A DNA stretch of 64,000 bases from Desulfatiglandales bacterium (GTDB lineage: Bacteria; Desulfobacterota; DSM-4660; Desulfatiglandales; Desulfatiglandaceae), in contig OY762721.1 in the NCBI GenBank assembly GCA_963666345.1, positions 1,184,001 through 1,248,000 on the forward strand, written 5' to 3'. The position numbers are program-made. Below are positions 37,601-46,600 of the stretch, piece by piece; positions within the stretch are counted from its first letter, which is position 1, and each line of letters begins with the position of its first letter.

Positions 37601-40600
37601 GCTTTCCATTTCAAGCCTGATATTGGGGGAATCCACGAATATTCCCTTGATCCTCGGATTGTGACAGGCAAGAAATTTGGAATATATCATGCTGTGGGTC
37701 ATAACGTAGAGCTGCCCCTTGTAATGGATGCTCGGGACATATTCCACGTCATGGGCTAGAGGGTCCGTTATCTCACTTATCTGAACCCTCTCCATATTGA
37801 AGAGCCCTTCATCCGCAAGGAACTGGTGCATGGCATTTACAAAAGTGGTCCTTAGCGATAAGGCCGCGTAAAGGACATCACCCGTCCACTTGTTGTAGTA
37901 ATACTTGTCCAGATATTCCTCCAGGCTTGAACCTGCCTCTGTAAGGGCGGCCTGAAAACCGAACAGGCTCTGACCTATGGCGGTCATGGTCTCATCTTTC
38001 ATAATTGCCGAAATCTCCTCTGATAAGTTCACGCAACCGGCGCCAGCCGATGGCCCGGAAGCAATCATTCCCATCCGTCCGGAAATCAGATATTTCCGAA
38101 CGGATGTCTGTTAAAGTTTTCCCAGATATCTATCAAGTTCAAACTGACTCACATGAGTCCTGTAATCATCCCATTCTATCTTCTTGTTTTCTATGAACTT
38201 ATTGAACACATGCTCTCCAAGCACCTTTTTTACCAGCTCGCTCTTTTCCGTCTCAATGATGGATGCGTAAAGATTTCCCGGAAGATCCGAGATCCCGTGG
38301 GCCTTTCTTTCGGCAGGGTTCATCTCGAAGATATCCTCTTCAATAGGCTCCGGAAGTTCATATCCCTTTTCTATTCCTTCAAGACCCGCCCCCAGCATCA
38401 ACGCAAAGGCCAGGTATGGGTTACACGCCGGATCAGGCGACCTGAATTCCATCCTTGTGGCCGTCTCTTTGCCCGGCTTGTACATGGGCACCCTTATCAT
38501 CGCGGACCTGTTTCTCCTTGCCCACGACACGTATACAGGTGCCTCGTAACCCGGCACAAGCCTTTTGTATGAGTTTACCCACTGGTTGGTGATGGAAGTA
38601 ATTTCCGGGGCATGCCTTAACAGGCCTGCGATATAGCATTTTGCCATCTCAGACAGATTATATTTGTCATCCGGGTCATAAAAGGCATTCCTGCCTCCCT
38701 TGAAAAGCGATTGATGCACATGCATCCCGCTCCCGTTTTCTCCGAATACAGGTTTTGGCATGAAAGTGGCGTACATACCCTGGTGCATTGCCGCCTCCTT
38801 GACCACCATCCTGTAAGTCATTGTGGTATCCGCCATTCTGAGCGCCTCGTCATATCTGAGGTCGATCTCATGCTGACTGGGTGCCACCTCATGATGGCTG
38901 TATTCAACCTGAATTCCCATAGATTGCAGGGAAAAGATGATCTCTCGCCTTAAGTCACTGCCCAGATCAAGAGGCCGGGCGTCAAAATACCCCCCCTTGT
39001 CGGTCATTTCAGTGGAATGATCATCTTTAAAACAGAAAAATTCAAGTTCAGGCCCTGTATAAAATGTATAGCCGTCTGCGGAGACCTTCTTGAGAAGCCT
39101 TTTCAGTACATATCTCGGGTCCCCCTCGTAGTGAGTCCCGTCAGGGTTCAATATATCGCAGAACATTCTTGCCACGGGTCTTTCATCACTCCTCCAGGGC
39201 AGAAGCTGGAAGGTTTCAGGATCCGGCTTCGCTATCATGTCACTTTCCTCAATCCTGGCGAAACCCTCGATGGAGGAACCGTCAAAACCCATCCCCTCGG
39301 TAAGCCCCTCTTCCAGTTCAGAGGGAGTAACAGCGAAGCTTTTAAGAAAACCGAGCACGTCGGTAAACCAGAACTGGATGAAACTGACATCCCGTTCCTT
39401 TACTTCTTTCATTACATCTTCCCTACTTTTGCAGTTCATGATTTCATCTCCTTAAACCTGTTATGGTATAATGCCTCTATCGGCCATATCTGTCTCACTA
39501 ACAAAGCAATCATTATGCCAAACCCGAAAAGGCCGGTTCAATAAAGCTCCCCGCATCAATCTGCGGGCCGCCCGGGCAAACACGGATAGAGGCCTCTATT
39601 ACATGCAGGCAATACGCTATCTTCCCGCACCAACCGCCTGCTTGAACATGCCTTTTTTCATACAAGCATATATCATATGGGGCACCCGCACAAGGATATA
39701 CACGGGAGGGCCGGGTAGCTATATAAAGAGATATAAATCAAGGCGAGTGCGGTTTGCAAGGCAAGGGTTTTGTTTTGTCTTCATGTAATCGTAAGTGCAT
39801 GCCTGCCTCCAATTCTAATTTCATACAATTTTGTAATAAAAATTGCCTCATTAACACAATTTTGTACTTTACGCCCTTCCTATTTGTACCGCCCCCCAAC
39901 CAGCCCGGCAATTACCGTTTCCCGATACCTCTATCTTTTTTTCGCACAAGCGCAGGTGCCGGCGCTCTTTTTTCCGGCCTTATCTCACAAAAAATACCAC
40001 AGGAAAATGCAGTGGCCGCAGACAGGGCTTTCTTTCACAGTGCCTTGTCAGCTAATGTAACGCCCGCAAAAGCCCTTGGATACGGCCACTTTTCCGTCAA
40101 GTATAGAGAAGGCCGGAGAAATGAGTGCCGGTGCCGGAGCGTACCTGCTATAAATGGGCAAGAAAGACGTGAAACAGCTCCCCATTCGGACTTTCGACCC
40201 ACTGAATCCCTGTACATCTGAGTCCTCATGCCCGGTCAATATGCAAAGAGGTTGTAAAAAGGGCCTGTTTCTTGCAGAATAGAGGTGTTTTTAAAAAAAA
40301 GGACCTTGATAAAAAAGACATGAATCATAAAATCCCCAATTTAGTGCGGATTTTTATATCATGGGAATTACCTCCCGATTAGGGAATAAACACATTAATC
40401 CTTGACCCTTTGGGTACCTGGATTATCTTTCCCGAATCAGCCGTACAAGGACTTATTGTGAAAAGTATCCGGTGAATCGATAATGGATTGGAAAAACAGG
40501 GTATATTGCGGCTCCGTCGCTAAAGAGCATGTCGGCAGGCCGGTGCTTCTTATGGGTTGGATTGACGCCGTCCGTGACCATGGAAATCTGCTCTTTATCC

Positions 40601-43600: not shown

Positions 43601-46600
43601 CGGAGGCAAGCAGCAATCTGGCCAGGTACGACGGGGTCAAGTATGGTTTCAGGGCCGGGGGCGAGACGTCGGATCTATTGGAGATGTATGAGGCAACCAG
43701 GAGCGAAGGTTTTGGAAGCGAGGTAAAGAGACGTATCATACTGGGCAGTTATGTGCTTTCAGCCGGCTATTACGACGCCTATTACATAAAGGCCCAAGAG
43801 ACAAGAAGGCTGATAAACAACGACTTTGAGAGGGCCTTTGAAAAGGTGGACTGTCTCATAACCCCTGTATCCCCCTTTCTTCCCTTCAGGCTTGGCGAAA
43901 AGATCGAAGAGCCGCTACAGATGTACCTGGTGGATATCTACACCGTGTCGGTAAATCTCTGCGGGCTGCCCGGCATGAGCATAAACTGCGGGAAATCGGA
44001 AGGACTTCCGGTTGGATTTCAGATAATCGGAAGGCCCTTTGATGAAAACATGGTGCTCAGAGTGGGCAGGGCTCACGAAATTATATCAAAAGCAAACGCA
44101 TCCGCCGAAGTATAAATAATTCCGGCAAAAAGGAGCAAACAGCCGGGCCAAGAGAACCGGGTTTTCCATAATGAAATAACAGTGGCTCAGGGATGGTACG
44201 GATGGAATATGAAGTAATAATATGTTTTGAAACACATGTCGAACTAAAGACTGAAACCAAGCTCTTCTGTGACTGCAGGGTCGATTACGGCTCGCCTCCG
44301 AACACGCATATATGCCCTGTATGCACAGGTCAGCCGGGCTCGCTTCCCGTTCTCAACAAAAAGGCCGTGGAATATGCCGTAAAGGCGGGCCTTGCACTTG
44401 ACTGCGACATAAACCGGCTGTCCAAATTTGCAAGGAAAAATTACTTCTATCCCGACCTGCCGAAGGGATACCAGATCTCGCAGTTTGAGCTTCCATTCTG
44501 CGAAAACGGACATATGGAAATCACAGGGGATGACGGCAGTCCTTACGATGTCGGGATAAGGAGGATACACCTTGAAGAAGATGCCGGCAAGATGGTGCAT
44601 TCATCAGGTTCGCTCGAATCCTCCAGCTACAGCATCGTGGATTACAACCGCTCAAGCATCCCTCTTCTGGAAATTGTGGCGGATCACACTAAAAACCCCT
44701 TGAGGTCCGTGAACGAGGCCATGAATTACCTTGAAAAGCTCCGTCAGACCCTGAGATATATCGACATAAGCGACTGCCTCATGGAAAAGGGGCAACTTCG
44801 GTGCGACGTCAATGTCTCCATACGCAGGAAGGGGTCTGAAAGCTTCGGTGACAGAGTGGAGATAAAAAACATGTCTTCATTCAGATTCATCGCCCATGCC
44901 CTGGAATATGAAATAGACAGACAGACGGACATCATGGAATCGGGAGGAGAAATTCATCAGGAAACCAGGCTCTTTGACGAGGCCAAAAAGATAACCGTCC
45001 CGATGCGTTCCAAGGAAGACGCCCCTGACTACAGGTATTTTCCTGATCCTGACCTGCTGGAAGTAGAGATTGACCAGGAATTCCTTCAGCGAATCGAGGA
45101 TTCCATGCCTGAACTTCCGGATCAGAAGATAAGACGGGTCCGGGAGACCTACGGTATTCCCCAAAAAGACGCCTTGATTATCGCCAGGACAAGGGAAATC
45201 TCAGACTACTTTGAAAACTGCGCACTCAGTTGCGATGATTCCGCAAAACTTGCCACCTGGATCATAAAAGACCTATTCAGGCTTCTCAATGAAAGCTCTC
45301 TTGACATCAAGAGTTGTCCGGTGCCGCCTCAAAATTTTTCCCGTCTCATAAATATCCTGGCTCAAGGAGTCATTACCGAAAGCGCCGGAAGAACGGTCCT
45401 GGATGAGATGTTCAGGAACGGAGGAAGACCGGACGAGATAGTTGAAAGGATGGGTCTCAAGGCGATCCAGGACATGGAAAGTCTTGGGAAAATGGTCTCA
45501 GAGGTAATCGACGCCCACCCTGAGGTGGCAGGCAGGATAAGACAGGGCAGGCAGGAGCCGATTAATTTCCTGGTCGGTCAGATCATGAAAAAGACCCGAG
45601 GCAAGGCGGATGCCAGGAAACTGAGAAAACTGCTGAGGGAAGCGCTCCTTTTAGATGAGTAAAATCAAGGAAGCCTGTCACTATAAAAGATGGCGGAGCA
45701 AAGCGACTCAGCCATTTCAGAAACTTCAAACTTTAGTCACTTTAGTCACTCTAGTCACTTTAGTCACTTTAGTCACTTATCATAGGCATTTATGCCGATC
45801 CATTAACACAGCATCATCTTTGCCGGCCCGGATAAAAAAACCAGGTTTACTGTAATTAAATAAACCCTCCCAGGTTTGATCGACATGCGCATCATATACG
45901 CAACCGATATCCATCATGCATTGAGACAGCTGGAAGAGCTTTTTAAAAGGACCGATCCGGATCTCTATATCATCGCAGGAGATCTGGCATACCGTGCCTT
46001 TTACAGGTACAAAACCGCATGGCGCCTTATTGAGCTTGAGCAGATACTGAAAAGATACGGCAAGGATGGGCAGAGCCTCCTTGAGACGGCCTGCGAAATA
46101 TGCGTTACAAAAAATGAGGGTTCGCATTACGAAAGGGCCCTGGAATACCTTGACCTGGCACGTAAGGCAGAGGATTTTCTAAAAAAGACCTACCTGAAGA
46201 TCGAACGCATAATAGAGCACACCTCAAAGGCCCCCGTTTATGTGCTTCCGGGAAACTATGACATGGATCTTAACGAGACCCCCCTATCCGGACGCAACCT
46301 CCACCTTGATTTTATAGATTTCAAGGGCCTTCGCATAGCCGGTTACGGCGGCGCGAAGGTTCACACGCCCGGAATCCCGGAACACCTTCAGGTTCCCTTT
46401 ATAGAGAATAAAGGCCCGGAGGGGGTCATTTCCGAGGCATTTGATTTTTTTACCGGTTGCCGCCCCCAGATACTGGTCACCCATGAACCACCCTATGGGC
46501 ACCTTGATTTCCTGAAAGGGTACGGTAATGCCGGAAGCGAGGGAATCAGAAGATATATCGATGAAAAAAAGACGGTCGCCGTGCTTTCGGGACACTACCA

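Follow-up and report, generated by a model that had tools for sequence, protein, structure and literature searches.

Within the window that we analyzed (64,000 nt, positions 1,184,001 to 1,248,000 of contig OY762721.1 of a Desulfatiglandales bacterium), one gene encodes a bacterial-type aspartyl-tRNA synthetase (AspRS) and the amidotransferase subunit GatC in a single polypeptide, and is followed by gatA and gatB (Table 1). In the reading that we favor and consider probable, this gene joins a second, probably non-discriminating (ND) AspRS through a flexible linker to a complete GatC, forming a tethered transamidosome of the Asn branch.

Table 1. Features of the aspS-gatC locus, in window coordinates
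Feature	Position	Strand	Description and evidence
aspS-gatC fusion gene	40483..42654	+	723 aa plus stop; ORF list, translation, Pfam and NCBIfam domains, independent contigs
AspRS part, bacterial-type, residues 1-597	40483..42273	+	Pfam, NCBIfam, alignment to P. aeruginosa ND-AspRS
Linker, residues 598-628	42274..42366	+	31 aa, polar and charged; gap between full-length models
GatC domain, complete, residues 629-723	42367..42651	+	TIGR00135; alignment to solved GatC chains
gatA	42658..44115	+	485 aa; TIGR00132, 611 bits; Lys79, Ser154 and Ser178 present
gatB	44193..45662	+	489 aa; GatB_N and GatB_Yqey domains; TIGR00133, 556 bits (cut-off 315)
Upstream non-coding DNA	39440..40482		About 1 kb, sigma-70-like consensus sites; consensus site search
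Glutamine synthetase (GS) gene, divergent from the fusion	38111..39439	-	Pfam Gln-synt_N and Gln-synt_C

Domain organization of the fused protein and its operon

Translation of the fused gene reveals no internal stops, and the AspRS-GatC fusion of 723 aa described in an earlier note is borne out by this single ORF and by its Pfam and NCBIfam domains. The Pfam coordinates given there were reproduced exactly: an OB anticodon-binding domain (tRNA_anti-codon, PF01336) at residues 21-106, a class II core (tRNA-synt_2, PF00152) at residues 135-574 with a GAD insertion (PF02938) at residues 325-420, and GatC (PF02686) at residues 645-717, the last scoring 76 bits against a cut-off of 23 and covering model positions 1-66 of 66. 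Full-length NCBIfam models place the first part among bacterial-type AspRS (TIGR00459 aspS_bact, residues 5-598, 678 bits, cut-off 374; NF001750, 744 bits, cut-off 443), and in the PDB it matches 1eqr, 1c0a and 4wj3 best (about 1e-148). The C-terminal part matches TIGR00135 gatC over positions 1-93 of 93 (residues 629-722, 88.8 bits, cut-off 47) and aligns end-to-end with the solved chains 3h0l_C (residues 7-93 of 94), 2df4_C and 4wj3_C. Because TIGR00459 reaches residue 598 and TIGR00135 starts at residue 629, the linker comprises about 31 residues, not the approximately 70 proposed previously. Among 45 proteins resembling the fused protein's own lineage (class I, below), linker length is conserved (24-33 aa, median 31) but sequence is not: identity to the fused protein is 14% for the linker, compared with 67% for the core and 57% for GatC.

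The gatA and gatB genes follow on the same strand, as the note had stated, and the gatA ATG lies 3 nt downstream of the aspS-gatC stop codon, a close operon packing. The Ser-cisSer-Lys amidase triad of GatA (Lys79, Ser154 and Ser178 in S. aureus GatA numbering) is invariant in 10/10 class I operons, and, of the 114 columns without variation among 20 canonical GatB, GatB retains 84. The GatA triad and a GatB score above the model cut-off place both proteins in GatCAB, and, judged from their sequences, both are catalytically intact. Upstream of the fusion we found 10 sigma-70-like sites (best 40306-40333, 10/12), which are weak evidence because shuffled sequences contain 6.7 on average.

The fusion is not an assembly artifact

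A frameshift or misassembly could in principle have joined two separate genes. Nothing in favor of this possibility was found; we reject it and regard its probability as negligible. Within the order, 8 further genomes carry the same fused frame, as do 98 database proteins, and contig X3, from an independent study, spans window positions 41800-43000 with 0 differences. Contig X6, from a related strain that is roughly 95% identical, covers positions 42181-43000 with 41 substitutions and keeps the frame; third codon positions account for 15/18 listed differences within the ORF, and the sole indel, two A's in an A-run, lies between the fusion stop codon and the gatA ATG. The unchanged independent run and the in-frame divergent strain rule out an assembly error.

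Genome inventory and tRNA identity

A six-frame Pfam search of the 4.16-Mb genome (E<=1, 3 scored candidates) returned a single GatC match, the fused one, and no free-standing GatC, in agreement with the proposal that the fusion carries the only GatC of the genome. Single copies of gatA and gatB are present. Scored matches likewise confirmed the other enzymes listed earlier: a second, unfused AspRS elsewhere in the genome (762 bits), AsnRS (631 bits), GlnRS (770 bits), AsnA (268 bits) and a pair of AsnB-type genes (442 and 333 bits). There is one GluRS.

The tRNAs predicted in the genome by aragorn include a single tRNA(Asn) gene with U1-A72, tRNA(Asp) with G1-C72 and a larger D-loop, and two tRNA(Gln) genes, both with U1-A72. 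An excerpt of PMC9976931 names U1-A72 in tRNA(Asn) and G1-C72 plus the larger D-loop in tRNA(Asp) as identity determinants of GatCAB; both the tRNA(Asn) and the tRNA(Asp) here have the first base pairs of an Asn-transamidosome system. Could GatCAB also, or instead, make Gln-tRNA(Gln) (Glu-AdT activity)? Bacterial GatCAB enzymes tested in vitro performed both reactions, according to passages of PMC2330236, and U1-A72 in both tRNA(Gln) genes is compatible with such a role. However, the presence of GlnRS and only one GluRS argues against it, no GatC is separate from an AspRS, and the survey PMC4206432 states in one passage that no bacterium is known to have both routes to Gln-tRNA(Gln). We consider a glutamine role for this GatCAB very improbable.

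Specificity markers of the fused AspRS

A His at the RDHGG position (His31 in P. aeruginosa) marks non-discriminating AspRS and is a modest determinant of specificity, while the Asp-only AspRS of E. coli and T. thermophilus have Leu there. A second marker position for non-discrimination is P. aeruginosa Gly82, which is Lys in E. coli. His33 of the fused AspRS aligns with the His of the P. aeruginosa ND-AspRS motif. RDHGG is also found in PDB chains 4wj3 and 5w25, which their depositors call Asp/Asn ligases, and in 4o2d, while E. coli 1c0a and 6hhv, an Asp-only ligase, have RDLG. The marker His is present in 8/8 class I and 8/8 class II fused AspRS rows that include the N-terminus, and is invariant in 52/52 fused sequences of alignment A5; in the order's unfused AspRS that position is Leu, Met or Phe (12/12). 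These alignments support the view that the His marker sets the fused copy apart from the unfused one. At the Gly82 position the fused protein has Glu, but 8/9 class I fused rows and most unfused AspRS have Gly, so this position does not discriminate within the group. Finally, two genomes (G314 and G386) keep GatCAB without a fused AspRS, and their only AspRS has Leu or Met at the His marker, suggesting that GatCAB may also be fed by an AspRS of the Leu/Met type.

Distribution and two classes of fusion

The fusion is conserved, as the note had claimed: our database search recovered the same 98 homologues, all with AspRS and GatC Pfam domains, and 9/14 sampled genomes of the order have a fused copy. 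Fused AspRS form two classes. Class I, the lineage of the protein studied here, has a canonical GatC, its GatA keeps the catalytic triad, and free GatC is absent. Class II, the type already catalogued, differs in having a linker of 13 aa, a GatC tail that is degenerate (16-29 bits in Pfam), a divergent GatB and a glutaminase-dead GatA, in which Gln replaces Lys79, the Ser154 loop is deleted and Glu replaces Ser178 (8/8); a separate canonical gatCAB is present as well, with gatC/gatB found in 9/9 genomes. The AspRS parts of the two classes are sister clades whose joint split has an SH-aLRT of 100.

The claim that the protein is annotated only as aspartate--tRNA ligase stands for the plain name on the protein itself. 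However, an NCBIfam model, NF009460 (PRK12820, [quoted passage not shown]), covers a bifunctional protein of class II with the same domain order. The fused protein matches it over its full length (model positions 18-723 of 723) at 937 bits, below the cut-off of 1379, compared with 1176-1223 bits for class II members. Because this entry already names the architecture, its novelty is smaller than implied.

One possibility is that the fusion serves only assembly and co-expression, with the AspRS body delivering GatC at fixed stoichiometry, without channelling or any special tRNA specificity, so that either AspRS could make Asp-tRNA(Asn). The premise is that GatC needs GatA and GatB to fold. Consistent with this, the class I module of G314 lacks a fused AspRS and its GatC is a free protein of 112 aa, which shows that class I-type GatC can stand alone; in another genome (G007), neither gatA nor gatB follows the class I-like fused gene, and a free GatC is present too; and the linker sequence is unconstrained. 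Against it, all fused AspRS fall in one distinct, long-stemmed clade and co-occur with an unfused AspRS in 19/19 genomes, the marker His is universal among fused sequences and missing from local unfused copies, and the conserved linker length suggests a geometric requirement. We therefore judge a pure assembly device unlikely.

A proposed tethered transamidosome

GatC forms a belt around GatA and GatB, and AspRS is a dimer; the three closely packed gene products would therefore be expected to yield a permanently tethered particle, (AspRS-GatC)2(GatA)2(GatB)2. In this particle, the AspRS site would load Asp onto tRNA(Asn), the acceptor end would shift to GatB, and Asp would be phosphorylated and amidated there to give Asn-tRNA(Asn), with ammonia freed from glutamine by GatA. 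The mischarged intermediate would be produced only beside the enzyme that corrects it and, because every GatC is attached to a fused AspRS, the whole amidotransferase pool would be dedicated to the Asn branch. That the fused enzyme charges tRNA(Asn), that it assembles with GatA and GatB, and that the particle channels its intermediate at this stoichiometry are inferences, as is the "covalently wired transamidosome" of the earlier note.

The indirect Asn route would be accessory in this genome, where AsnRS, GlnRS, AsnA and AsnB are also present, and the note's notion of an extra route fits because these direct routes all exist. The AspRS-GatC/GatA/GatB module looks dispensable, since no GatC, GatB or GatA orthologues were detected in two sister genomes of the same family (G288 and G140), a result that also suits an extra route. 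The presence of AsnRS, AsnA and AsnB, which leaves such a route no evident advantage, weighs against the proposed reading.

The module might instead serve mainly amino-acid metabolism, through glutamine- and tRNA-dependent asparagine synthesis under particular nitrogen conditions, and not routine translation. In line with such a role, AsnRS is present in 13/13 other genomes of the order, and passages of PMC2330236 and PMC4206432 describe the extra ND-AspRS and GatCAB of Thermus and Deinococcus as the route to asparagine. A divergent GS gene upstream of the class I locus would also fit, and one is found in G000, in G314 (82% identity) and, as a 37% paralogue, in G260. However, GS is absent from that position in 4/7 class I loci examined (G338, G231, G073 and G107), and the gene is context only, no conserved partner of the module. 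The genome moreover has AsnA and two AsnB-type genes, and a search of positions 39400-40600 gave 0 Rfam matches at E<=1, and therefore no T-box leader or other regulatory RNA family. On balance a mainly metabolic role seems improbable.

More tentatively, and with less confidence than in the tethered transamidosome itself, class I might constitute a self-contained "AsnRS in cis", an obligate (AspRS-GatC)2(GatA)2(GatB)2 particle that never releases Asp-tRNA(Asn). Under this extended version, the housekeeping AspRS would have become discriminating, the glutaminase-dead class II would have branched off from this one ancient fusion as a derived form, and the 24-33-residue linker would set the geometry of the tRNA swing between active sites.

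Implications

The transamidosomes known so far are transient, with tRNA holding the particle together. A natural fusion in which all predicted catalytic sites are intact could serve as a preformed, stoichiometric particle in which to follow the transfer of a mischarged tRNA from synthetase to amidotransferase. Controls come with the group itself: its unfused AspRS paralogue bears the opposite specificity marker, one relative has lost the AspRS part but keeps GatC on its own, other relatives have no module, and a sister lineage has a catalytically dead GatA. For annotation, the plain name "aspartate--tRNA ligase" means that genomes of the group could be scored as gatC-negative.

Comparison with known systems

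A close parallel is the non-covalent Asn-transamidosome of ND-AspRS with GatCAB plus tRNA(Asn), known from P. aeruginosa (PDB 4WJ3/4WJ4) and H. pylori (PMC3367201). Both systems have a bacterial-type AspRS with GAD, complete GatA, GatB and GatC, tRNA(Asn) with U1-A72, and the His of the RDHGG motif, which is seen in 4wj3_M. Passages of PMC3367201 describe free bacterial ND-AspRS and GatCAB as associating through tRNA(Asn) only, in a dynamic complex, and ND-AspRS alone as toxic. In the fused system, by contrast, AspRS and GatC are one polypeptide. The non-covalent transamidosome also belongs to an organism without AsnRS, whereas the genome studied here has AsnRS, GlnRS, AsnA and AsnB.

An engineered counterpart exists in the Gln branch. 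Chain C of PDB 3AL0, from the Thermotoga maritima Gln-transamidosome crystal, is a 592-aa molecule named "subunit C,Linker,Glutamate--tRNA ligase 2", in which a covalent link ties GatC to a non-discriminating synthetase and keeps the transamidosome together, as proposed for the fusion. That construct is artificial and places GatC N-terminal to a class I GluRS, whereas the protein described here is natural, belongs to the Asn branch and places GatC C-terminal to a class II AspRS. The artificial GatC-synthetase fusion was reportedly needed to crystallise the transamidosome.

The fusion goes unmentioned in the portions of the survey text of PMC4206432 and in the rows of its Table S1 that were searched. 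In gene content, close systems are those of Thermus thermophilus and Deinococcus radiodurans, which, like the present genome, combine two AspRS with AsnRS, GlnRS and GatCAB; their second AspRS is dedicated to the indirect route, as is proposed here. Their extra AspRS is archaeal-type and unfused and provides their sole route to asparagine, with no AsnA or AsnB, whereas the extra AspRS of the fused system is bacterial-type, covalently joined to GatC and accompanied by both AsnA and AsnB.

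Domain Organization and Integrity of the Fused Gene

The AspRS and GatC domains are encoded by a single ORF, with gatA starting 3 nt past its stop codon and gatB next, and G+C content is even over the fused-gene region. Pfam reproduces the domain coordinates claimed for the protein in an earlier note on this DNA. NCBIfam full-length models reach beyond the Pfam bounds: aspS_bact (TIGR00459) covers residues 5–598 (678 bits vs. a cut-off of 374) and gatC (TIGR00135) covers residues 629–722 (88.8 bits vs. a cut-off of 47). Because the first model ends at 598 and the second begins at 629, the linker, put at ~70 residues in the earlier note, shrinks to ~31 residues (598–628), a length that could span ~100 Å at most.

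Coordinates of the fused gene, its protein domains and the downstream genes (window positions for genes, residues for domains)
Feature	Position	Strand	Basis
aspS-gatC fusion ORF, 723 aa	40483-42654	+	single ORF
OB anticodon domain	residues 21-106		Pfam
Class II core	residues 135-574		Pfam
GAD insertion	residues 325-420		Pfam
GatC	residues 645-717		Pfam
gatA	42658-44115	+	
gatB	44193-45662	+	

The GatC domain of the fused protein aligns end to end with solved chains, namely 3h0l_C (7–93 of 94), 2df4_C, and 4wj3_C. Among 45 class I-like proteins (the canonical-GatC type of this lineage), the linker is 24–33 residues long (median 31), and identity to the window protein is 14% in the linker, 67% in the core, and 57% in GatC. 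The linker of class II, the fusion type with a degenerate GatC tail, is 13 residues long in 7/7 proteins. An internal start for a free GatC at Met631, downstream of a GGAAGGG stretch, was rejected because this Met is missing in the 8 other class I fused sequences (protein alignment A1).

Assembly error does not account for the fusion. Contig X3, from an independent study, covers window positions 41800–43000 in full with 0 differences, and a contig from a related strain (X6) covers 42181–43000 with 41 substitutions. The sole indel in the latter is two A's in an A-run between the fusion stop codon and the gatA ATG, and third codon positions hold 15/18 of its listed in-ORF differences (2 further differences are not displayed).

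No GatC Besides the Fused One Was Found in the Genome

The genome (4.16 Mb, one contig, estimated completeness 96.7%) contains one GatC match at E ≤ 1 (among 3 scored candidates), which is the fused one, and single copies of gatA, gatB, and GluRS. It also encodes a second, unfused AspRS (762 bits), AsnRS (631 bits), GlnRS (770 bits), AsnA (268 bits), and two AsnB-type genes (442 and 333 bits). Direct charging routes and asparagine synthesis genes are therefore both represented, and the inventory drawn up in the earlier note, with the fused GatC as its sole GatC, was correct. The GlnRS, encoded outside the window (C1:1470259-1472361; L017:1060-3162, minus strand), is another synthetase of this genome with an appended domain: it has 701 aa and a C-terminal tRNA_bind domain (PF01588, residues 605–699, 83 bits).

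Aragorn predicts 47 tRNAs, including one tRNA(Asn) with U1-A72 and G73; tRNA(Asp) differs in its G1-C72 pair and larger D-loop. These features are the GatCAB identity and anti-identity elements described in PMC9976931.

A Specificity Marker Separates Fused from Unfused AspRS in the Order

Nondiscriminating AspRS (ND-AspRS) of Pseudomonas aeruginosa has a His (His31) in an RDHGG motif, which we take to affect tRNA(Asn) recognition; the position of its Gly82 is presumably a second marker. In HMMER alignments to solved structures, RDHGG is present in 4wj3_M and 5w25 (both deposited as Asp/Asn ligases) and in 4o2d, and RDLG in E. coli 1c0a/1eqr and the Asp-only ligase 6hhv. The window protein has His33 at this position, as do all fused sequences with an N-terminus (8/8 in class I, 8/8 in class II, and 52/52 in a further protein alignment, A5). 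Conversely, 12/12 unfused AspRS of the order are without His (nine Leu, two Met, one Phe), the copy in this genome having Leu. The distribution of the marker thus fits a division of labour between a discriminating housekeeping AspRS and a putatively nondiscriminating fused AspRS. Among unfused AspRS from other families, 19/21 rows show His; some of these rows are supplied by the class II genomes, 6/9 of which gave no AsnRS match. The Gly82 position fails to tell the two groups apart, with Glu in the window protein and Gly in most fused and most unfused sequences. One genome of the order (G034) has a third, very divergent AspRS (L063, contig C72) with His at the marker position, 41% identity to the fused one, and an end branch of 1.8–2.1 in the AspRS tree.

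Two Classes of Fusion Differ in the Condition of Their Amidotransferase Genes

We searched a sample of 401 genomes of the phylum, this one included. A GatC match is present in 377/401, and a junction query (residues 540–723) gave one contiguous match in at least 12 of the 401 (from the best 150 of ~760 matches). Follow-up on 25 chosen genomes and 20 fetched loci yielded the class split. Class I is made up of this genome plus 8 more from its order, with fused proteins 59–63% identical to the window protein, a GatC domain of ~80 Pfam bits, and gatA (61–68% identical) and gatB (57–78%) following; no further GatC was found in class I genomes. Class II comprises 9 genomes from eight other families (G387, G316, G375, G344, G372, G264, G240, G163, and G233; operons L033–L041). 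Their fused proteins are 52–55% identical over the full length, the GatC-like tail scores only 16–29 Pfam bits, and the fusion is followed by a short GatA-like gene (~410 aa, 27–29% identical) and then a divergent GatB (36–38%). In addition, 9/9 class II genomes encode a stand-alone canonical GatC and another gatB, this one canonical.

Catalytic residues follow the same division. Class I GatA keeps Lys79, Ser154, and Ser178 in 10/10 sequences. In 8/8 class II GatA-like proteins (the G240 copy fell outside this count under a 200-residue alignment filter) the Lys is replaced by Gln, the GGSSGGS loop is deleted, and Ser178 is replaced by Glu. With the whole Ser-cisSer-Lys triad lost, class II GatA-like proteins are predicted to be glutaminase-dead. 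Of 114 columns invariant among 20 canonical GatB, 84 are kept in all 9 class I members and 71 in class II, where the DYRYF..DL motif is lost.

The AspRS-GatC architecture is already catalogued as NF009460 (PRK12820, [quoted passage not shown]). Class II proteins outscore class I on this model (1176–1223 vs. 937–962 bits; cut-off 1379), which places the catalogued family closer to class II as judged by model score. Names on close homologues of the window protein include Desulfatiglans anilini, Desulfatiglandales, Desulfobacteraceae MAGs, and "Multifunctional fusion protein." The junction family is small at 50% clustering: a profile search against 1.84 billion cluster representatives gave only 19 matches at E ≤ 1e-30, and of the 150 proteins listed, ~27 extend across the junction, mostly fragments, with one full length (710 aa). 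A search of genome contigs with A1 returned mainly ordinary AspRS; the few fused loci among the matches listed are apparently class II-like, given their low identity, whole-query matches, and organism names. A 743-aa open frame with GatC in G170 was rejected as a fusion because GatC families alone match it. Besides its class I fusion, G362 has another fused-type AspRS, which belongs to the class II clade and is cut by a contig end (L064, contig C635); the assembly is in 710 contigs and may be of mixed origin.

Evolution and Natural Variants

In a quick IQ-TREE analysis of the AspRS part (53 rows, a short G007 fragment excluded), all fused sequences lie on one side of a branch of length 0.65 (SH-aLRT 100). 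They divide into two sister clades, class I (97) and class II (99), and unfused AspRS from the order cluster separately (99). An unfused AspRS accompanies the fused gene in every genome (18/18, and this one). GatB sequences separate cleanly into class I (100, stem 1.04), class II (100, stem 1.49), and canonical (88) groups; the tree is unrooted and does not bear on whether class I and class II GatB are sisters. GatB of this genome is 42–47% identical to canonical GatB of the phylum, including a copy from the same order (G386, 44%), so class I GatB is more than a vertically inherited housekeeping gene.

Some relatives of the window lineage carry the module in altered form or lack it. At the syntenic locus of G314 (L042:1749-6767), glnA (82% identity) is accompanied by a free 112-aa class I gatC, gatA 3 nt on, and gatB; no fused AspRS was found, and there is only one AspRS in the genome. 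G314 appears to be a natural "de-fused" variant; its GatB branches from within class I, which makes loss of the AspRS portion the economical explanation. In G288 and G140 (97% and 99% complete) we found no GatC, no GatB, and only 33–34%-identical amidases, so the module was not found in 2/7 genomes of the family; both keep AsnRS and GlnRS. The G140 negatives deserve some caution because AspRS was also missed there at the threshold used. Among the other genomes of the order, AsnRS is present in 13/13 and GlnRS in 12/13. The fused gene of G007 (L032:1-903) is class I-like and incomplete, lying at the edge of a contig, and the genes downstream of it are on the opposite strand. That genome additionally encodes a free-standing GatC and a single canonical gatB, and neither AsnRS nor GlnRS was matched in it, so one GatA–GatB pool may serve two kinds of GatC there.

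Genomic Context

Between glnA and the fusion gene lies ~1 kb of AT-rich noncoding DNA (39440–40482) with weak sigma-70-like sites and no Pfam-matching ORF; the corresponding glnA–gatC gap in G314 is only ~350 bp. A T-box leader upstream of the fusion gene was rejected because there was no Rfam match. We also rejected glnA adjacency as a conserved link, since the divergent glutamine synthetase gene upstream recurs in only 3/7 class I loci. Elsewhere in the window, a 663-aa ORF (47684–49675, plus strand) combines N- and C-terminal acetyl-CoA hydrolase/transferase domains with a C-terminal GNAT acetyltransferase domain.

Proposed Mechanism and Comparison with Known Transamidosomes

The components are established, as are their integrity and the substrate tRNA. 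In the mechanism that we propose, an AspRS dimer would carry two GatC tails, each nucleating a GatA–GatB pair, and a single particle would first aspartylate tRNA(Asn) and then amidate the attached Asp. As the genome has no free GatC, the whole amidotransferase would be committed to the Asn branch.

The literature searched, with most subscription journals outside its reach, yielded no paper on any AspRS-GatC fusion, and the section and supplement rows consulted in a survey of 547 genera (PMC4206432) list neither the fusion nor a delta-proteobacterial extra AspRS. Published work on free enzymes (PMC3367201, PMC2330236) and an engineered tether (PDB 3AL0) make a tethered Asn route plausible. ND-AspRS expressed by itself is toxic to E. 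coli, an effect that coexpression of GatCAB prevents (PMC3367201), and according to a review (PMC2330236) the nondiscriminating synthetase that is present determines what GatCAB does in vivo. The free proteins of Helicobacter pylori do not associate without tRNA(Asn), and their complex dissociates on charging (PMC3367201), whereas here synthetase and GatC are one polypeptide. For the Gln-transamidosome there is an engineered likeness: one chain of PDB 3AL0 bears the name "subunit C,Linker,Glutamate--tRNA ligase 2," and in it the two components were tethered by design.
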